Of a stretch of 64,000 bases of DNA, positions 55,731 through 63,770 are shown one piece after another. The position numbers were made by a program, and so were the translations under genes. Each line of letters starts with the position of its first letter. The stretch's first letter is position 1. The stretch spans positions 32,001 through 96,000 of the forward strand of contig JALVYU010000011.1 of the NCBI GenBank assembly GCA_027022365.1. Reading direction: 5' to 3'. The DNA comes from Desulfurococcales archaeon (GTDB lineage: Archaea; Thermoproteota; Thermoprotei_A; Sulfolobales; Desulfurococcaceae). The notes under the pieces were generated by a model that was not told the DNA's origin, made no database searches, and worked only from the letters and a program-made list of their open reading frames with translations.

Positions 55731-55808
55731 GGGCCCGTAGCCTAGCCTGGATAGGGCGCCGGCCTCCGGAGCCGGATGTCCCGGGTTCAAATCCCGGCGG
55801 GCCCGCCA
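55731..55808 (+). tRNA. tRNA-Arg(CCG) with encoded CCA
   Basis: GGGCCCG/CGGGCCC acceptor stem, CCGGC-CT-CCG-GA-GCCGG anticodon arm, CCGGG-TTCAAAT-CCCGG T arm. Confidence 0.97.
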
Positions 55809-56009
55809 CTGATCTCAGACTTTTTCATAATTTTGTTTAATCTTGAAGAAAACTTCAATGTTAAGATGCATGACCTAAATTTCTAGGGTTTTTCTTGCTT
55901 CTACTAGGTAGTATGGCCAGAAAGCAAGCCACTTATTGAGGAGAATCTCTAATTCAACGCGCAGATAACTACTGTACTTCCTAATCTCATTTACTGGTGG
56001 TAGATAGCG

Positions 56010-56246
56010 TTAGAGTGCATTTTGCTTCAACAGTTTCTGTCCCTTCTTAGTATTGCGGAGCTTGGGGTCTAAGCCTTCATCAACTATAACTATCTTTGCG
56101 CCAGTAGTATAGAGTAGCTCATTGTATACTATCATGGGAATCGCCATACCTTCAACAATTGCTTCCATGATAACCTTCTCTGAGGCGCTTGTTAGCTCGG
56201 TCTCGAAGAGGAAGCTATAGATGATGTTCGTGTCAAGACATATCAT
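56010..56246 (-). pseudogene. vapC: Truncated VapC/PIN toxin
   Basis: MICLDTNIIY...IVYNELLY, then non-PIN sequence; only 78 aa. Confidence 0.75.
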
Positions 56247-56452
56247 TGAACCTGAGCCTCTTCTTCGAGCTCCTGGAACTCCTCGATAGAGGATTTCCCG
56301 AGAATGCCTCTGTACTTTTTGATTAGCTCGTCTATATCCCTTTCCACTATAACCTTATACTCCTTGCCCTCCTCAAGGTCTATACTGCCCAAAGGCCTCA
56401 GCACACCCTTCTCGTACCTCACACGTATAACTTTATACAACTCCATCCCCAT
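56243..56452 (-). CDS. DUF104/AF2212-like antitoxin
   Basis: IRVRYEKGVLRPL...L.EG; ATGA overlap with vapC. Confidence 0.88.
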   Translation of the reverse strand: MGMELYKVIRVRYEKGVLRPLGSIDLEEGKEYKVIVERDIDELIKKYRGILGKSSIEEFQELEEEAQVQ

Positions 56453-56598
56453 TCATACACTAGATACATTGGGCCAATTAGCCTTTTCCTGTATGGGTGT
56501 TTTCCAGATTATCCTCTCTGACATTCAATATGGATAATCTTTTGTGGAGGGTGTTTCCATTTCATGATTTCATCCGGAAACATTGTTCTTATATCCCA

Positions 56599-56645
56599 GG
56601 CCTTCGGAGCCGGATGTCCCGGGTCCCGAATCCCGGCGGCCCGAC
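56599..56645 (+). repeat. att-like copy 1 of the tRNA-Arg 3' half
   Basis: ggccttcggagccggatgtcccgggtcccgaatcccggcggcccg versus tRNA 55761-55805. Confidence 0.9.
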
Positions 56646-56776
56646 ACTAAGTTTTAGTGTGTTAGTAAACATTATTCATTATAGTCTTCAGTGTATGCTT
56701 TAGGACAGTAGATGACAAAAGATATGTGATGTAGGAATGTTGATAAGATTCTATCTAATACTATGTAGGATGAGGG

Positions 56777-57001
56777 GTGCTGGTATTGTCTGAGGTAGTT
56801 GTTAAGGTGCCTAGGGGTGTTGATGCTGAGAAGGTTAAGCGTAGGATCGAGGCTATTCTTGACCTTGTGATTAGCGATGAGTTTGACAAATTCATGGAGT
56901 ACTTAGAAGAATACGCTCTCCTACGTCTTCAAGAAGAAAGTCTTCGGGAATTTCTAGAGGATGAGCCGGATGTCTACACCGAGGACGACATTAAAAGGTA
57001 A
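56777..57001 (+). CDS. Putative antitoxin of the MazF-type toxin
   Basis: Acidic C-terminus ESLREFLEDEPDVYTEDD; overlaps the toxin start. Confidence 0.75.
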   Translation: MLVLSEVVVKVPRGVDAEKVKRRIEAILDLVISDEFDKFMEYLEEYALLRLQEESLREFLEDEPDVYTEDDIKR

Positions 57002-57341
57002 GATAGTGCTCATCTATTCCCCCTTCACCGACCTAACGGGTAGAAAGCTCCGGCCAGCACTAGTACTCTATGATAGTGGTAAAGATGTCGTTGTTGCATT
57101 CATATCCTCAAAGATAGAGAAATACGAGCCTGAGACCGATATCCTGATAAGTAAATCACATCCGGAGTTTCATCTCACCGGGCTTAAAACAGACTCAGTA
57201 TTGAAACTCTCAAAAATAGCCACCCTATATAAGAGACTAATAGCAGGAGAATTAGGCACCATAGGTGAGCAACTAAGAAATGAGATAAACCAGAAAATAA
57301 TAAAAATAAATATTATTAGTATAAACTCAGAGAAGACCTAG
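56961..57341 (+). CDS. PemK/MazF family toxin
   Basis: GKIVLIYSPFTDLTGRKLRPALVL, ISS, TGLKTDS. Confidence 0.9.
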   Translation: MSRMSTPRTTLKGKIVLIYSPFTDLTGRKLRPALVLYDSGKDVVVAFISSKIEKYEPETDILISKSHPEFHLTGLKTDSVLKLSKIATLYKRLIAGELGTIGEQLRNEINQKIIKINIISINSEKT

Positions 57342-57480
57342 CATTATCAATAAAATTATTGCACGCTTTAAAACACTTATATCTAGTAAAACTTCAATAT
57401 TACCCAGCGCCTCCTAAATCTTTATGAAGATGTGTTTAATACTAGCCCATTCATACCTGAGTATAAAATGTAACTATTTA

Positions 57481-57573
57481 CCCAGGTCATAATTAATTCT
57501 TGGACGTTTCCTTATAGGATCTGGTCTTTGGAGCCAATGAACCTCGGATCCATAATCCCGGCGGGCCCGCCAC
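57481..57573 (+). repeat. att-like copy 2 plus conserved left flank
   Basis: 20-nt exact match (57554-57573) to 55790-55809; GGACGTTTCCTTATA at 57502 is shared with copy 3. Confidence 0.88.
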
Positions 57574-57624
57574 AATGTATTTCTATTATTGTTTGTTTCA
57601 GGATGGGATACGGATAAGTAGTTT

Positions 57625-57999
57625 TTAAGAAAAGTGTTTACGGAGAAGCTGCCTAACAGTATCTAAGAATTTTTCTAGCGATGGGTCTTGTAGGGGATAT
57701 GCTTCTCCCCTTAGGTGTCTGTGGTGTGGATGGGTTTGGATTTCTGGGTGATGTGGCCGATTATCCCACCATTCCTCATAGTCATAAGCTCTCAGGTAGT
57801 AACCATAGGCTACGAGATTATTTCCTTGCCAGTACTCACGTATCACCACTACCGCGTTAGCGTGAGGGATGCTTATCCTTACGTTTAAGTACTCTATGTC
57901 TTCTTCATCCATGACATAATGCTCAATAACTCTGACTACAGGATCGTGCTTGCCCAGAAGCTTATTGATCAAGTTGAATATGTAGCGTAGCCTTGTCAA
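57625..57999 (-). CDS. DUF6516/TumE-like toxin
   Basis: YGYY...WDNRPHHPEIQTHPHHRH motif. Confidence 0.75.
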   Translation of the reverse strand: MTRLRYIFNLINKLLGKHDPVVRVIEHYVMDEEDIEYLNVRISIPHANAVVVIREYWQGNNLVAYGYYLRAYDYEEWWDNRPHHPEIQTHPHHRHLRGEAYPLQDPSLEKFLDTVRQLLRKHFS

Positions 58000-58005
58000 T
58001 CCTCT

Positions 58006-58266
58006 TTATCCCTTAAGCATTGCCAGTATACGCTTCTTCCTCTCCTCTAGCTCTCTAAGTCTTCTCTTCAAGTAGAGGTATTCTGGCCAGAGAAGGTCTA
58101 CCTCCGGGTTATCAATGCCTCTACTAGTGAGAAGTTTCTCTAGCTCCTTCCAGTCCCCAACGCCTAGTCTTGCAGCCATTCTCTGAAGCCTAGCCTCGAC
58201 TACTGCAGCCTCTCTATTAATCCTCCTCAGCATTACCTCTAAGCTCTCACGTACAATAGGCTCCAA
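58006..58266 (-). CDS. Putative antitoxin (helical, 86 aa)
   Basis: Immediately upstream of and co-oriented with the DUF6516-like gene. Confidence 0.7.
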   Translation of the reverse strand: MEPIVRESLEVMLRRINREAAVVEARLQRMAARLGVGDWKELEKLLTSRGIDNPEVDLLWPEYLYLKRRLRELEERKKRILAMLKG

Positions 58267-58504
58267 GATCCTACCCCACTACATAAACTATTAATAAATC
58301 TAGTAAAAATGTCGTTAGCTATACCCGTGATAAGGGTCACTGCTATTCCTACCCCTATTACCATCTGAGACTAAAACAACTTCAATCTAATTCCTACTAA
58401 TGTAATACATGCTCTCCCTAACTAAAATTTTTGAAAACCGTACTTTAAACAATATTTATTGCCCCATATACCAAATAATAGGTATGAATTCCTACCGTAA
58501 CTGC

Positions 58505-58594
58505 CCCAGATCCTTATCAGCCCTTGGGACGTTTCCTTATAAGTGTCGGCCCCGGAGCCGGAGATCCCGGGTCCAGAATCCCGGCGAGCCCACC
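58505..58594 (+). repeat. att-like copy 3 plus conserved left flank
   Basis: cggccccggagccggagatcccgggtccagaatcccggcgagcccacc; GGACGTTTCCTTATA at 58527. Confidence 0.88.
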
Positions 58595-58693
58595 CTTTTA
58601 TTCAATGAATTGTTTTGTTCTATGATAGAGAGACGTTGTGTTTGGGGAGAGGTTAAGAGGCCGGGAGGACGTAATGTGATTTGGTGAGGGATT

Positions 58694-58974
58694 ATGCCTT
58701 GTGTTTTGAAGCTCCCTCTTTCTAGGAACGCGGTGAAGAAATTGTTCGGTTCTTGGAGGGCGAGCATATCTAAAGGGTCTGGAGGACGTGCTTAGCCAGT
58801 ATTCTGAGAGGGTTGAGGAGGACATACTGGAGGATTTCCTAAGGGAGAGGAGGTAGCCCCGTGGGATCGAACCTGGTTGTCGACGTACTAGTCTTAATAT
58901 ATTCTTCTCTTCCACAAAAGAAGTTATATGATTACCCTGATTATATACGGTTGTATATGGTGGGTAACTCATAG
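58694..58974 (+). pseudogene. Decayed antitoxin plus PIN-toxin remnant
   Basis: Frameshifted ...VEEDILEDFLRERR* ending at 58856, then MGSNLVVDVLVL... 37 aa (58861-58974). Confidence 0.5.
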
Positions 58975-59028
58975 TTTAACTATGAAATCATATTGGTTCA
59001 GACTCCTGTAATTAGACATAGTTATAGA

Positions 59029-59396
59029 CTAGTGCTGCAAATGTTGGTCGTAGATCTCTATGTATTCATGCTCTATGACTATGAGTAGCCCGGGCTTAGG
59101 CTCTAGCTGACTGGCTATTGAGGCTATTCTCTCAGCCAGTCTTGGTATCTCGTTTTTGGAGGGCTGGTAGGAAATATAGATTACTCCATTCTTCGCTAGA
59201 GATAAAAGGCTTGGTGCTGTAAAGTCGGTGTCTCTCGTTAATATTGTCATTCCAAGCTCGCTTGCTGTATTAACTAGCTCCTTATCACTAATATCTCGGG
59301 TACCTAGATCTTGTAGACGGGCAACATCTATACTTTTCTGCCTCAAGAAGATTACCAGCTTTTAGGTATGTTTTCATCAGCCAGAAGCCTCAGCAA
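59029..59396 (-). pseudogene. DUF5615/VapC45-like PIN toxin with a 1-nt frameshift
   Basis: MLRLLADENIPK, shift at the A4 run (59360-59363), continuing LVIFLRQK...SDKEL...ILTRDTDF. Confidence 0.8.
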
Positions 59397-59622
59397 CCAC
59401 TATAACTCTCTTCAGCGCCTTAGATGCAAACCTCAATGCTTCACATACAGCTTCCACCAGTATATCAAACTCCTCAGCAACCTCCTCGGGTTTCCAACCA
59501 GCAGCAAGCATATCTAGAATATCATCAACAGATACTCTTGTACCCTCCACAGTAGGCCTACCACGCCTACCAGGCACTATTTCAAGCCATTTATAACCAG
59601 GCAAGAGAACCATACCAGCCAC
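59377..59622 (-). CDS. DUF433 antitoxin
   Basis: GRPTVEGTRVSV...GWKPEEVAEEF...EALRFA. Confidence 0.88.
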   Translation of the reverse strand: MAGMVLLPGYKWLEIVPGRRGRPTVEGTRVSVDDILDMLAAGWKPEEVAEEFDILVEAVCEALRFASKALKRVIVVAEASG

Positions 59623-59961
59623 CGCTAAGCAATACTACCAAGAAAGGTTCTTTTATATTCTCAGCCCGAAGACTAGAATTAATCCCGGTTTCTAGTCTCA
59701 ACATTATTTCCCACGGATCAATTTCCAGGACCCTACATCTTCCATCTCATTAGCAGTCCTAAAATACTTAGACAGCCCTATTAACCATAAACAAACTCTC
59801 GTAATAATCTTCCTTGTCCACAGTCTTTTAGTTCCTCGTAGATAAATGGCGCCTAGCTAAAAAATCCTTAGCTCAGATAAGTTTAAAGTCTCTACAGTTA
59901 CAAAACCCCTTCAGATACTCAAACGAGCTAATAGTCCTTGGTGGGCCTAAGCCATGTTTTT

Positions 59962-60088
59962 CTCATCGTTTATTGTTCTAAGACTAGTGTAGACTTCATC
60001 ACTACCGGATAAAAATGTTAATGATTAGATCTGGCTTCGGCCTTATATCATGTAACAGGTATATTGGAGCGTTGGTGTCGACGTACAT
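59962..60088 (-). pseudogene. VapC/PIN toxin remnant
   Basis: MYVDTNAPIYLLHD..., frameshift, ...DEVYTSLRTI; TGATG overlap with the antitoxin stop. Confidence 0.65.
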
Positions 60089-60300
60089 CAAAGATGCTCG
60101 GCCTCTTCTATCGCCTCCTCTAGGAGCTCTGGATTCACACGGCCCAAAACGCTTCGATACCTCTCCAGTATTCTTCCACTCCCTCCTATATTGATTATCT
60201 TGACAAGAAGCCCTTTGTTCTCATCCATGACAAGCGGCTCCTCAGGCGCCAGCACACCGCCCCTATATCTTACTCGGATGATCTTGGACAATCCTTGCAC
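60088..60300 (-). CDS. DUF104/AF2212-like antitoxin
   Basis: KIIRVRYRGGVLAP...LEEAIEEAEHL. Confidence 0.82.
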   Translation of the reverse strand: MQGLSKIIRVRYRGGVLAPEEPLVMDENKGLLVKIINIGGSGRILERYRSVLGRVNPELLEEAIEEAEHL

Positions 60301-60475
60301 CCGCCTAGTCTTACCAATAATTAACCAATTAGCTCTTCCTCAAGGAAGTTACTAGGTTATCATAATGGATGCCGGTCTCGGTGGTAATTGGTTTTGTGTA
60401 GTGTTTCCCGGTATAATGTTTTTCCTCTGGAAACCCAGCTTATAGATTCTAGGACCCAGATCCTGCTGTCCCGGG

Positions 60476-60937
60476 CTAAACGCCTAGTTTCTCGATGATG
60501 CGGCGGCTCCATTCCCGGCATCTTCTTAGGGCTTCTTTGTCTGGTCTTCTTATCCAGCCGCTGAAAGCGGTGGATTCTATTATTTTGCCCCTGACGTGTT
60601 TTATGACTTGGCCTAAGTACCACCTGACGATCTTGTCCCTTATCGGTGAGGGTATTTTCTTGCTTGCCATGAAGCACGTAATGTACACGGCGACTTTCCG
60701 GCCCTCCAAGCCGTTATTTCCGTCTATGAACTCGATGACCGTTCTCATGGGGCGCTCAAAGTATATCGGTGTCCCAAGCACGACTAGGCCGCAATCCCCA
60801 AGATCGGGCTGCTCCCTCGACACCCTGTACACGGCTACATCAAGGCCTGCACTCCTCATCTCGGAGCCAATGCACTCAGCAATAGTGGCTGTAGCGCCCC
60901 CTTCATGCATCGAATCATAGATTATGCAAACCCTCAA
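60476..60937 (-). CDS. Flavodoxin-domain protein (HemG-like)
   Basis: IIYDS...GATATIA, LGTPIY, KVAVYITC. Confidence 0.82.
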   Translation of the reverse strand: MRVCIIYDSMHEGGATATIAECIGSEMRSAGLDVAVYRVSREQPDLGDCGLVVLGTPIYFERPMRTVIEFIDGNNGLEGRKVAVYITCFMASKKIPSPIRDKIVRWYLGQVIKHVRGKIIESTAFSGWIRRPDKEALRRCREWSRRIIEKLGV

Positions 60938-61211
60938 GTACTAGCGACACCCCGCATTTAATAAGCAGATACTATGTGTGTTATTGTGTATAGTTAGCTT
61001 CATGAGGGCCGATCGCTAATTGTAATTATACCGAAAAACATTTTTCCTTGCCCACTATACTTCTCGTTCGTTAATATTCTCGTTTTTAATTGTATTGGTT
61101 ATTAGGTCTGCTCATATCTATGGTATTATCAACAATTCGCAGAGGACTAGAAAGAGCATCTCTAAGGTCTTAATAAAAAATAATTCTTAATAAAAAATAA
61201 TTATTGCTTTA

Positions 61212-63770
61212 TTATTTTCTCATTATGTACAGGATTAGTGCGAGTGCGGCTATTCCGGTTCCTGCTGCCGCTACTATAACTATTGTTTCGGTGCCTCCTC
61301 CTTGTTTACTTATTGATGTTTGAGAGGCGGTCTTAGGAGTATTACTGCTTACAGTTGTGCTTGTTGTCTGGGTTTTACTGGTTATTGCTGAGTTCTCTGC
61401 GGCGGTTTGAGGACTTGTTTGTTCACTTGTTGTCTGCGTTACATGGCTCTGCTGGGCTTGTATGGGTATCTCTATCGTTATGTTTTCTCCCGGATGAGTC
61501 GCTACAAACTCTATTTCTTTTCCGCTGGTGATTTCGCTGGAGGATTCCTTGTAGTAGTAGAGCTTGTAGTGGAGTCCGACGAGTATTTTATATTCTAGTG
61601 ATTCGCCCCCGTATATTTCGCTGACCCTTACTGGTATGTATTCTTCACCAGACTTTACGTAGAAATCGAGTAGATACGTGGTGTTAGCCGTATTTATTAT
61701 TATGAGGTTCGCGAGTTTATCTTCGAATAACTTATCTGTATCTATCCATACTATTTTCGAGTCACCCGTCAGATTAATGGTTATACTCCAATTCGATGGA
61801 GCCACTAAACCTAGTATCCTGGGCTTTATCATTAACGTATAGTTTCCTGGGGGGACACAATAGCCGGTCCAGTTCTCGGTCGTAAACAAGTGCTTGACAA
61901 CATTCCCCGAGGATGACAACAGGTACACGCGCTGGCTCCCTCTTAGCATTATGACGATGCCCCGAGGGAGCAGCTTGATAATCTTATCTTCTCCTCCCCA
62001 GACAATTAAGTGAAGCCTAGTCGGTTCTATGTTTCCTCTAATGATAAACCTGTCTTCACGGAATTCAGCGGTAATATTGTAGTATCCTCTAAGGGCTACA
62101 AGTATTATCCTGTGTTTTTCGATGTCACTAAATACGTATGATTCCTTACCCCATCTCACAACTAAGCGCTTAACTATGCATGGGCCGGGGATCTCTAGCG
62201 TTATATGGGATACTAGGCTTCTCGCCTTCTCGGATATATTTATATGTATCATCTGTAGGGGCTCCGTGTTCAGGGATACATTCCAGCTCTCCTTAGCAGC
62301 GTTGGGGTCTCCCACGATAAAGCCATCCACGCCTAGTACTGTCCTAACCCACATCTTGGTCTTCGCATTAAGGGTATAGGTGATTGACGCTTTTCTATCG
62401 GGGAACAGGGGGATAAACCATCCGGTATGAACAGTGAAGCCGCTTTGATCCCTTAGAGTAAGCCCCAAGAAGTAGTTCTTATACGGGCCCGGATCAAAGT
62501 ATGCGATCGCATATCTGGGCCAATCTATAAGTGCAATCCTCACCTTGTAGAAGTATTCTTGGACAACCCATGCCTCTCCATCGTCGAGGAACCCGGCGTT
62601 GATCGGCATAGTGGCCACCGCTCTATTCACTATGGATTGCCAGATCAGCGGGTTTTGCTGAAACCTTATTAGCGGGGCCCCCATCATCCCGACAAACCCG
62701 ATCTCAGCCAGTCTTTCCTTCCTCGCAACCACTCCCCAAACCCCGTTACCGGTCCATCCATAAATCCTTGTCACGAACGGCCTCCAATCCACTGTACGTA
62801 GGAGAACACCGTTGCTCGCATTGTAGACTAGGTAGCTCCCTGAACCGGACTGGTAGTACAGGCAACACCCTGTGGGATTAAATATTATTCCTTCCGATGG
62901 ATTGGCGGGATAACCAACAGTTCTAGACCATAGTATTTCCCGCCTCAAAACATCTAAGACCGCAAGGCTTAGTGTTCCCTCGGTCTTGTTATACCCTAGA
63001 AACGCTAACATGTTCCCTTCCGGACTCCATGAAACGGAGGAATATAGGTATTGGCCTGTACTGTAAAGCTTTTTGAGTGACTGATTATATATTGGTGAAC
63101 CGCCCCTATCAAATACGATGATTGATTCATACAACATCCCTGTATAAGAGAACGCTACCATACCCTTAGGAGACACGGCTACCTTAACATATTTCAAGAG
63201 AGTAGGATCAACAGTGTTCTTGGGAAAAGCGATGTCCCACTCAGTGTTCCTTGAAAACACCCACAACTGTATACCTGTGCCGGGATTATCAACTATTAGG
63301 GCGATGGTGCCATTATTCGAATCTAGGCTACGGGGATAACCGCGCACCGTCTTGAACTTTACTAGCTTTCCTACAGGGGTATACTTGTATATTGTCGTAC
63401 TGATATTTGATCCCTCGTATAATGCGATGTATATTACCCCCTCATTTGCGTCATATGAAGCTAGTATGAAACTGCCCTTCGATATCCTGTCTTCACGCAA
63501 GACAGACAGGTTAGCAGTATCCAGGGATATAACCCTCTTTGATGTCACGAGCACTATATTGTCGCCGATGTTAAATGCATTCACAACTCTCTCATTGAGA
63601 GTTCTGTTCAATTCTATTACGTTACTTCTCACGTGGGACAGCGAGGATGGTATGAGTAAATTGCCGATTACGCGTTGTTCGTAATTGCTACTGCCAACTA
63701 TTGTGATCTGGATGTAGGCTAGTAACAGTAATGCTAGAATAATATATATTAACGGGGATTTAACCCCCAT
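61212..63770 (-). CDS. Large cell-surface protein: signal peptide, beta-propeller-like repeats, Thr/Ser linker, C-terminal TM anchor
   Basis: Hydrophobic N-terminus, VAVSPKG/VSWSPEG/IFNPTG blade motifs, T/S-rich tail, TM helix ending in RK. Confidence 0.8.
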   Translation of the reverse strand: MGVKSPLIYIILALLLLAYIQITIVGSSNYEQRVIGNLLIPSSLSHVRSNVIELNRTLNERVVNAFNIGDNIVLVTSKRVISLDTANLSVLREDRISKGSFILASYDANEGVIYIALYEGSNISTTIYKYTPVGKLVKFKTVRGYPRSLDSNNGTIALIVDNPGTGIQLWVFSRNTEWDIAFPKNTVDPTLLKYVKVAVSPKGMVAFSYTGMLYESIIVFDRGGSPIYNQSLKKLYSTGQYLYSSVSWSPEGNMLAFLGYNKTEGTLSLAVLDVLRREILWSRTVGYPANPSEGIIFNPTGCCLYYQSGSGSYLVYNASNGVLLRTVDWRPFVTRIYGWTGNGVWGVVARKERLAEIGFVGMMGAPLIRFQQNPLIWQSIVNRAVATMPINAGFLDDGEAWVVQEYFYKVRIALIDWPRYAIAYFDPGPYKNYFLGLTLRDQSGFTVHTGWFIPLFPDRKASITYTLNAKTKMWVRTVLGVDGFIVGDPNAAKESWNVSLNTEPLQMIHINISEKARSLVSHITLEIPGPCIVKRLVVRWGKESYVFSDIEKHRIILVALRGYYNITAEFREDRFIIRGNIEPTRLHLIVWGGEDKIIKLLPRGIVIMLRGSQRVYLLSSSGNVVKHLFTTENWTGYCVPPGNYTLMIKPRILGLVAPSNWSITINLTGDSKIVWIDTDKLFEDKLANLIIINTANTTYLLDFYVKSGEEYIPVRVSEIYGGESLEYKILVGLHYKLYYYKESSSEITSGKEIEFVATHPGENITIEIPIQAQQSHVTQTTSEQTSPQTAAENSAITSKTQTTSTTVSSNTPKTASQTSISKQGGGTETIVIVAAAGTGIAALALILYIMRK

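Follow-up and report, generated by a model that had tools for sequence, protein, structure and literature searches.

How do toxin-antitoxin (TA) gene pairs come to stand one behind another, in units of nearly equal size, directly downstream of a tRNA gene? The question is raised by a 64,000-nucleotide (nt) stretch of DNA from a hydrothermal-vent archaeon of the Desulfurococcales (GenBank assembly GCA_027022365.1, contig JALVYU010000011.1, positions 32,001 to 96,000), hereafter the window, in which the tRNA-Arg(CCG) gene at 55731-55808 (plus strand) is followed by three direct repeats of its own 3′ part, each closing a unit with one TA pair. We consider it probable that each unit is a non-autonomous integrative cassette which a tyrosine integrase of the SSV (Sulfolobus spindle-shaped virus) family, acting in trans, placed at the anticodon loop of the tRNA gene. 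The locus in the window looks like an old, partly decayed array of such integrase-less miniature cassettes.

The tRNA-Arg(CCG) gene, the presumed integration target and anchor of the array, is the sole tRNA that ARAGORN calls in the window (64.5 bits with the Rfam tRNA model); MetRS lies upstream of it, and this neighbourhood is kept in five of five same-genus genomes. Downstream, the part of the gene from anticodon stem to CCA is repeated three times in direct orientation, at 56599-56648 (copy 1, 80% of 50 nt identical to the tRNA), at about 57521-57573 (copy 2, its extent taken from sequence reading, with a 27-nt core family at 57545-57571) and at 58547-58596 (copy 3, 66%). A preliminary description of this DNA had placed recurrences of the tRNA-Arg 3′ half at 56599, 57521 and 58547, spaced by about 0.84, 0.93 and 1.02 kb, and both statements hold: successive copies start 838, ~925 and ~1023 nt apart, giving units of 0.84, 0.93 and 1.02 kb, and the recurrence itself was recovered by a repeat search and by a motif search set against shuffles. 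A 19-nt motif (16 specified bases) from the tRNA 3′ part is exact at the tRNA, copy 1 and copy 3, and with up to three mismatches it occurs four times against 0.24 expected, a count reached in 0 of 100 shuffles. Copy 2 is more diverged and was recovered only by a profile made from the copies themselves, so the E-value of that match is circular. The same kind of profile search found no further copy in the window at E ≤ 10; a weak candidate for a fifth copy at 60456-60480 (76% of 25 nt), which did not stand out from other chance families and was missed by the profile, was dropped. Across the array the GC content is ~0.34-0.46, compared with ~0.50-0.55 in the flanks.

The repeated unit boundary is longer than the tRNA half with which it had been equated: the tRNA part does recur, but the real module spans ~160 nt and consists of an arm plus the tRNA part. 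When the 150 nt before each copy were aligned for the genome of the window and two congeners, units with unrelated cargo proved to have in common a ~110-nt non-tRNA arm directly before the tRNA part. Within it a 7-nt site occurs three times, twice in direct and once in inverted orientation; arms of at least three families exist. Family 1 (35 examples from at least eight genomes) reads, in order, a GTCCCA-type site, ~35 nt, the same site, a ~15-nt spacer, the inverted site, a TATA-like box, ~10 nt and the anticodon stem; family 2 has the identical layout on GTTTCCA. In the window, unit 1 carries a family-2 arm, unit 2 a degenerate family-1 arm and unit 3 a family-1 arm, and among 45 distinct units 23 belong to family 1, 10 to family 2 and 12 have another arm or none. 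The arm is probably an arm-type binding region for the integrase or a helper protein. In the 35 family-1 arms the unpaired third site is kept as well as the two sites that can pair, which points to protein binding and not to RNA folding, and 1-2-nt insertions and deletions (indels) without a three-base pattern indicate that the arm is not coding. We considered the arm as the remnant of a split integrase gene and rejected this because of the indels and because likeness to IntC beyond the repeat-encoded peptide was negligible. Short open reading frames (ORFs) run across the repeats in one frame.

Comparison of the locus across relatives, advised in the preliminary description, revealed units that behave as modules. 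(G000 denotes the genome of the window, other G-numbers the genomes of relatives, and L-numbers fetched loci.) After tRNA-Arg(CCG) the DNA differs in each of the five same-genus genomes. The unit encoding the predicted toxin TumE (unit 3 of the window) is 90.6% identical over 1052 nt in the congener G005, with likeness that starts in the left repeat and stops in the right repeat, and the DNA on both sides is unrelated between the two genomes. A unit with HEPN and nucleotidyltransferase genes is 83-86% identical from repeat to repeat in three genera (G003, G013 and G040); overall, whole repeat-bounded units recur between genera at 83-91% DNA identity. Their order changes as well: a DUF433/DUF5615 unit stands directly before the HEPN/nucleotidyltransferase unit in G013 and three units after it in G003, and the order of two units in G040 is reversed in G032. 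Identity of cassette proteins across genera is 86-94%; a radical-SAM housekeeping protein is 72-80% identical between this genus and four others. Minimal units that recur and are reordered in this way are expected neither from independent erosion nor from simple vertical inheritance of a growing stack.

The units are spread well beyond the window. With a 161-nt arm-plus-repeat query, extended matches, often in tandem, were found in at least 13 of 63 genomes of the family and in 7 of 22 genera. Searches with the arm pattern alone returned 34 stretches from species genomes, 26 of which also carry the repeat and 29 of which are titled as Desulfurococcales, Desulfurococcaceae, Staphylothermus, Acidilobaceae, Pyrodictiaceae or Thermoprotei metagenome-assembled genomes (MAGs), and 78 stretches from metagenomes, 67 of which match the arm/repeat profile. 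Two arm-pattern matches in IMG/VR were considered as viral carriers and set aside as chance, since they lie in tailed-phage-like DNA with no match to the arm/repeat profile. Once 74 repeat-to-repeat units had been collapsed by exact sequence (the same contigs having been fetched by two routes), the 45 that were distinct, from Desulfurococcales MAGs, measured 796-3395 nt with a median of 1179; 34 were no longer than 1.6 kb, and the sizes cluster at ~1-1.3 kb. This count leaves out units of more than 6 kb between repeats, and at least one long unit within it (3024 nt, G040) contains a missed repeat.

TA genes dominate the cargo: almost all of the 45 distinct units carry such pairs, and an integrase is found in none. 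Pfam searches of 79 ORFs from 31 intervals yielded 16 PIN, 13 AF2212-like and 6 UPF0175 proteins, three each of DUF433, DUF5615, DUF3368 and nucleotidyltransferase, two each of HEPN and TumE, and three of each partner of an aspartyl-protease/DUF5678 pair. Occasional passengers include a methyltransferase, a PEBP protein, an amidohydrolase, a CPBP protease and an ArsR-plus-permease set, and some units, longer at 2-3.4 kb, carry metabolic or transport genes. About three-quarters of the TA pairs read toward the tRNA, and the largest arrays have up to seven repeats.

A second array lies in the same genome, as emerged from the scan of other tRNA loci that had been proposed for this pattern. On contig C26, tRNA-Val(CAC) is followed by two ~0.8-kb units, each with one DUF433/DUF5615 pair and each ending in the Val 3′ part with a third kind of arm; by eye, the two pairs are only ~35% alike. 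Val-type arm/repeat arrays occur in at least nine genomes. The preliminary description had preferred stacked cassettes to large elements eroded to their addiction modules, and its preference is strengthened by this second array, by the recurrence of modules, by the sizes near 1-1.3 kb and by the lack of integrase remains in the units.

Where, then, would the recombinase come from? Between 55.7 and 60.4 kb of the window there is no integrase, replication or virion gene, in agreement with what had been reported from the sequence, and the PF00589 and PF16795 matches of G000 fall on contigs C7 and C26 only, none at the window array. Seven recombinase queries run by tblastn against 349,115 nt of array loci uncovered no integrase remains inside units, matching only the repeat-encoded peptide, one locus excepted; no integrase is among the 25 listed Pfam families of the 79 unit ORFs, beyond which lie nine further families; and no ORF enters tRNA-Arg(CCG) from downstream as an intN would. 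The same genome supplied a positive control for what a captured SSV-type element looks like: at tRNA-Val(GAC) (C26:534226-538415), a 135-residue (aa) intN overlaps the tRNA on the opposite strand and a 296-aa intC starts in the distal repeat, with ~4 kb between them. The integrase of this element might recognise the similar repeats of the tRNA-Val(CAC) array.

A candidate enzyme emerged from other arrays. At L114, L160 and L231 a broken integrase gene follows a family-1 arm and repeat (the L114 and L231 genes are near-identical and may be the same DNA). Its intact relatives are ~435 aa long, and their gene is not split by integration. Residues 254-428 match PF16795, the SSV-family catalytic domain (PDB matches 3uxu, 3vcf and 4dks), and the long N-terminal part contains what, judged by eye, is a helix-turn-helix-like stretch. 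Relatives are present in 69 of 301 genomes of the order searched, and in 10 of 12 fetched loci the gene lies directly downstream of a tRNA gene, in six of these a tRNA-Arg. One such integrase (L255:830-2134) belongs to a 17-kb element at tRNA-Arg(CCG) of another genome, which has the layout of two direct sites plus one inverted site before its distal repeat; here the site is GTTTCAG, of the eight times that it occurs in 19.9 kb, five are no more than ~100 nt from the two repeats, and an inverted site pair stands between the tRNA and int. The array behind tRNA-Arg(CCG) in G039 includes both an integrase element of 4.1 kb and an AF2212/PIN unit of 0.96 kb. This common arm architecture, with co-residence in one array, suggests that the cassettes may be excised and integrated by the integrase of another element. 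A 382-aa recombinase on C26 was examined as a general partner and rejected: only 5 other genomes of 63 have close relatives (E < 1e-50), it was not found in G005 or G001, and the array-bearing G003, G013 and G040 have XerA-like matches only.

From these observations we propose the following course. In the orientation of the tRNA, a cassette comprises a short left end, one TA operon, the ~110-nt arm and the tRNA sequence from the anticodon stem to CCA. A circular cassette (arm, tRNA part, cargo) would recombine with the tRNA gene at the anticodon loop, using the integrase of a larger resident or incoming element in the same cell; cassettes and gene are alike from the 5′ strand of the anticodon stem onwards. 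The tRNA part brought in by the cassette would restore the gene, and the old 3′ part would be displaced downstream to become the next internal repeat, so that repeated insertion would build an array whose newest unit adjoins the tRNA. This would explain why the tRNA part is well preserved in most arrays, as it restores the gene. Each internal repeat would be a hybrid, its left part derived from the left unit and its right part from the right unit. The TumE comparison fits such hybrid repeats, though not cleanly: odd bases are held in common in the right part of the left repeat, which is ~70% alike by eye, and the right repeat diverges after the T-stem, the likeness ending in its T-arm. TA genes may dominate the cargo because addictive cassettes resist loss, as the general biology of TA systems would lead one to expect.

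How much of this architecture survives in the window can be read unit by unit. Unit 1 (55809-56648, cargo on the minus strand) holds one TA pair, a PIN/VapC gene at 56010-56246 and an AF2212-like gene (formerly DUF104) at 56243-56452, with the remnant of a methyltransferase C-terminus at ~55880-56009, all on the minus strand. Its family-2 arm (~56497-56598) has GTTTCC-type sites at ~56499 and ~56551, the inverted site at ~56575 and a TATA-like box at ~56586, and leads into repeat copy 1. The reading of this interval as DUF104 with VapC was right as to families, but the VapC, found by Pfam like its partner, is truncated to 78 aa. In another genus, a unit with a methyltransferase gene matches the left 345 nt of unit 1 (55758-56102) at 89.6% identity; for the right part (56092-56614) the match, at 76%, is an AF2212/PIN unit whose PIN protein has the full 148 aa. 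On these alignments, unit 1 is a chimera in which a deletion fused the PIN and methyltransferase genes. Unit 2 (56649-57573, cargo on the plus strand) has one pair, a MazF/PemK gene (56961-57341, by Pfam) preceded by a 74-aa ORF without Pfam family that is the putative antitoxin (56777-57001), both on the plus strand, then a degenerate family-1 arm at ~57446-57520 (arm profile match, E 4.9e-08) and repeat copy 2. Unit 3 (57574-58596, cargo on the minus strand) pairs TumE (PF20126, formerly DUF6516; 57625-57999) with an 86-aa ORF without Pfam family (58006-58266), both on the minus strand; its family-1 arm at ~58440-58546 has sites at 58460-58466 and 58502-58508, the inverted site at 58525-58531 and a TATA-like box at 58536-58543, followed by repeat copy 3. 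Intervals 2 and 3 had been described as an antitoxin with MazF on the plus strand and an antitoxin with DUF6516 on the minus strand, which agrees with the toxin families and strands found here.

Past copy 3, about three units survive in eroded form (58597-60400), in which neither an arm nor a repeat can be recognised. Three more PIN-type pairs had been described here; one is intact, and two are wrecked. The intact pair consists of DUF5615 (59029-59346) and DUF433 (59377-59622), both on the minus strand and assigned by Pfam, and over 59050-59637 the DNA has 77% identity with a DUF433/DUF5615 unit that is enclosed by repeats in G003. The wrecks, recognised from Pfam matches and translations, are a frameshifted VapB-like frame with a PIN N-terminus at ~58695-58930 (plus strand) and, on the minus strand, an AF2212-like gene at 60088-60300 followed by a 28-codon PIN stump at ~60004-60087. 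Made up of small adjacent genes, the pairs of the window are by Pfam type II TA modules (AF2212-like/PIN, MazF, TumE and DUF433/DUF5615) whose toxins are predicted. Breakage of the unit 1 VapC and of two of the three distal pairs indicates that the array is decaying; with its diverged repeats, its truncated toxin, the lost ends of its distal units and no candidate integrase found in the genome, it is probably a fossil.

Several observations weigh against integration in trans as the origin of these arrays. No circular form or empty site came to light, and none of the 78 metagenome stretches has terminal direct repeats. In the window, likeness of the copies to the tRNA reaches only 66-80%, and an extra base gives them 8-nt T-loops; such diverged copies could not now restore a working tRNA, so the array is probably immobile. 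The 435-aa integrase has no match in G000 or in three searched congeners, whose only SSV-type integrases are those at tRNA-Val(GAC) and with a tRNA-Ala piece. Between arm and integrase the link is one full-size element, and unrelated arms are present in two other units that adjoin integrase elements. To account cleanly for both TumE repeats, as aligned, a single crossover point would need extra decay, and in one genome pair likeness carries on into the neighbouring unit for ~220 nt. The arm cannot act as a general promoter of the cargo, given that about a quarter of it is encoded on the array's own strand. Finally, MAGs are the source of every array, and this locus is a frequent point of contig breakage. 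Contigs from public sequencing runs were counted neither for nor against: 13 runs, all available as contigs and none listed as RNA, had matches, and the contigs of four runs compared with the window gave many short-sided joints. Among them, a skip from 56623 to 57554 in X4 (side of 22 letters) would equal loss of unit 2; a back-join from 58547 to 57549 in X7 would mean that unit 3 is circular or in tandem, or else that some other neighbour has a similar arm; and another back-join runs from 58546 to 55760 in X9. The sides of these joints are shorter than 30-52 letters, likeness goes down to 90%, and many related organisms are present.

One rival is erosion, in which each unit is the leftover of a separate large virus or plasmid that retained only its undeletable addiction module. 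This is the gene-capture model for archaeal tRNA loci, it matches the cis-mobilizable elements of bacteria, and the parts of two papers that bear on it (PMC3119797, PMC5704250) describe decay of integrated elements and tandem accretion. It would account for the visible decay of the window, with a PIN gene truncated by a gene-fusing deletion and distal pairs without repeats, for the captured split-integrase element at tRNA-Val(GAC) of the same genome, for units of 2-3.4 kb with metabolic or transport genes, and for the TA pairs that integrase-bearing elements themselves possess. Independent erosion would not, however, deliver one minimal repeat-to-repeat unit to three genera with differing neighbours and order, nor a size cluster near 1-1.3 kb, nor a ~110-nt arm kept beside the repeat despite unrelated cargo, and neither an intN over the tRNA nor an integrase remnant in the units was seen. 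We rate erosion as quite unlikely. Slightly better placed, and still unlikely in our view, is homologous shuffling, by which units seeded long ago in a site-specific manner would now be exchanged, reordered and lost through general recombination at their ~160-nt boundaries after uptake of foreign array DNA, without any cassette-specific integrase. The boundaries are long and 70-85% alike between units, the window genome and three congeners have no candidate integrase, likeness runs past a repeat into the neighbour in one genome pair, and a review of archaeal tyrosine recombinases (PMC8371274), where it treats tandem integrated elements, cites module exchange by homologous recombination between them. 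Yet shuffling leaves unexplained the well-kept tRNA 3′ part, a three-site arm like that of an integrase-bearing element and the packaging of unrelated cargo as one operon per unit, and 70-85% likeness is presumably low for efficient exchange.

It is less probable again, and very unlikely, that the arm and tRNA part form a small transcription unit for a functional RNA, be it a tRNA-half RNA, the 3′ half of a split tRNA or a TA regulator. In both arm families a TATA-like box does precede the tRNA part by ~10-15 nt, arm and tRNA part are about equally well kept, and separated tRNA-Lys halves exist elsewhere in the genome. In the arm hairpin of 35 sequences, 214 cells are Watson-Crick, 17 C-A, 8 G-T and 6 other; the excess of C-A over G-T could suit an RNA from the cargo strand, where C-A would be G-U, but with one clear compensatory change in the 35 the signal is too weak to call an RNA structure, and the unpairable third site is equally kept. 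Apart from the tRNA, Rfam searches of the arm as a known RNA gave at E ≤ 1 just four chance matches below threshold. No 5′ half that would match came up, a blast of the genome finding no tRNA-Arg 5′ half besides the gene, the copies in the window have the 8-nt T-loops already mentioned, and the units act as movable modules. Cassette integration at the anticodon loop remains the account we favour.

Other tRNA-related features were recorded along the way. At L071:13843-13907 (G013:C7), the tRNA-proximal end of a seven-repeat array is a well-kept Arg(TCG) part from anticodon arm to CCA, with no arm and no tRNA 5′ half ahead of it; possibly the tRNA that anchors the array is split, rearranged or intron-bearing, and G013 is ~70% complete. 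Two arm-plus-repeat modules within arrays, L073:4325-4402 and L071:11023-11095, are taken by ARAGORN for complete tRNA-Arg genes, as pairing is possible between the inverted GGGAC site and the 3′ strand of the acceptor stem. On G000 C26:525314-526363, an unsplit 349-aa SSV-type integrase gene holds in its N-terminal coding part the first 43 nt of tRNA-Ala(GGC), at 100% and on the same strand; a 5′ rather than a 3′ tRNA part is unusual, and the arrangement is near-identical in G013 (L144). The tRNA-Lys look-alikes lie on the minus strand of G000 C7, the 3′ piece first, at 151904-151934 (5′ piece, 31 nt, 97%) and 155753-155797 (3′ piece, 45 nt, 98%), 3.8 kb apart; they may represent an integration scar or a tRNA-Lys gene that is split or permuted. 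No tRNA-Lys(CTT) was called by ARAGORN in G000. All 46 ARAGORN tRNA calls for this genome fall on four contigs, 40 of them on C26, with none on the 494-kb C31 or on C30, C38 and C3. On the far side of the array in the window, host genes encode a 153-aa flavodoxin-like protein (60476-60937) and, on the minus strand, an 852-aa surface-protein-like product (61212-63770) that contains a Thr/Ser-rich stretch and, C-terminally, a hydrophobic segment. Downstream of where the latter gene ends (3′ end, stop ~61212), a 17-nt AT-rich unit is perfectly duplicated in tandem at 61168-61201, and contigs from two public runs lack one of its copies.

TA pairs are among the most horizontally mobile of prokaryotic genes, and the present results suggest that cassettes are an undescribed way for them to move. 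Should this be borne out, 1-kb units with one operon between repeats like attachment (att) sites would give archaeal TA pairs a defined vehicle and, to our knowledge, would be the smallest class of integrative element in archaea. They would also offer a natural parallel to integron cassettes, arisen on a different recombinase-and-site chassis. We put forward, as a possibility somewhat short of probable, that a cassette platform of the Desulfurococcales functions as the counterpart of the integron, with tRNA genes (Arg-CCG, Arg-TCG and Val-CAC) as attachment sites, ~160-nt modules of at least three specificities, SSV-family integrases of larger elements acting in trans, and TA and other small defence operons as the freight whose horizontal spread and accumulation it would serve as a dedicated vehicle. 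On that reading insertion might even alter the tRNA, changing CCG to TCG or the reverse, for instance, as everything from the anticodon loop to CCA comes from the cassette. In practice, the arrays break MAG assemblies at tRNA loci, and arm-plus-repeat modules give false tRNA calls that may inflate MAG tRNA counts. An arm with its tRNA part could serve as a short, defined substrate for the study of archaeal integrases and for integration tools in thermophiles.

A full-text literature search, outside subscription journals and supplementary files, found no prior description of such cassettes, and in the 2021 review of archaeal tyrosine recombinases the word "toxin" occurs 0 times (PMC8371274). 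What seems new is the combination of a uniform 1-kb, one-operon unit, a three-site arm in several specificities, arrays of up to seven repeats and TA genes as nearly the only cargo, in hyperthermophilic archaea.

Among the known systems closest to the arrays are the SSV-type (class I, "suicidal") elements, of which SSV1 classically targets tRNA-Arg(CCG). Both use a tRNA as target and a repeat that runs from anticodon arm to 3′ end, and the candidate 435-aa enzyme has the SSV-family catalytic domain. SSV-type elements, however, have their attP inside int, so that intN lies over the tRNA and intC at the far repeat. No such intN/intC partition exists at the window array, and our units, with no integrase or piece of one, are thereby set apart from a classical captured element; they are also only ~1 kb long, with a non-coding three-site arm where intC would sit. 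The sections of the review on IntSSV1 place strand exchange at the borders of the tRNA anticodon loop, suggest that a short att suffices in vitro, report tandem integration at one tRNA and presume that integrase-less integrated elements have lost the gene (PMC8371274).

Among bacterial systems, cis-mobilizable elements (CIMEs) and tandem accretion come close, being integrase-less, bounded by an attL and attR from the target gene and stacked at one site (PMC5704250). The arrays correspond in having direct repeats derived from the 3′ part of the target gene, in the window and in relatives, and no integration or transfer genes of their own. CIMEs are described, in the portion of that source devoted to them, as decay products of single integrative and conjugative or integrative and mobilizable elements (PMC5704250), whereas here uniform mini-units with conserved arms recur in several genera of hyperthermophilic archaea with TA pairs as nearly the only cargo. 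Transposons and miniature inverted-repeat transposable elements differ, since the ends of our units are direct repeats and no inverted pair frames a unit. The cargo consists of ordinary Pfam members of archaeal type II TA loci (VapBC, MazEF, HEPN-MNT, TumE/TumA and DUF433/DUF5615), but in our arrays att-like repeats enclose each pair in a defined unit; archaeal vapBC loci have been placed, in the parts of two studies that concern them, in variable regions flanked by degenerate insertion sequence copies and with no defined vehicle (PMC3718332, PMC3119797).

TA cassettes are common in chromosomal integrons, and the term "integron-like" had been applied to this array at the outset. As a statement of kind it fails, since there is no intI at the array, where MetRS lies upstream of the tRNA, and there are no attC inverted repeats at the boundaries, which are instead direct repeats of tRNA part plus arm; the attachment site, moreover, is a working tRNA gene, and many cassettes have cargo that reads toward the tRNA, presumably from its own promoters. 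As an analogy it holds: in both systems ~1-kb cassettes with a single operon gather at one attachment site, each with a structured recombination module at its end, and follow one another in variable order.

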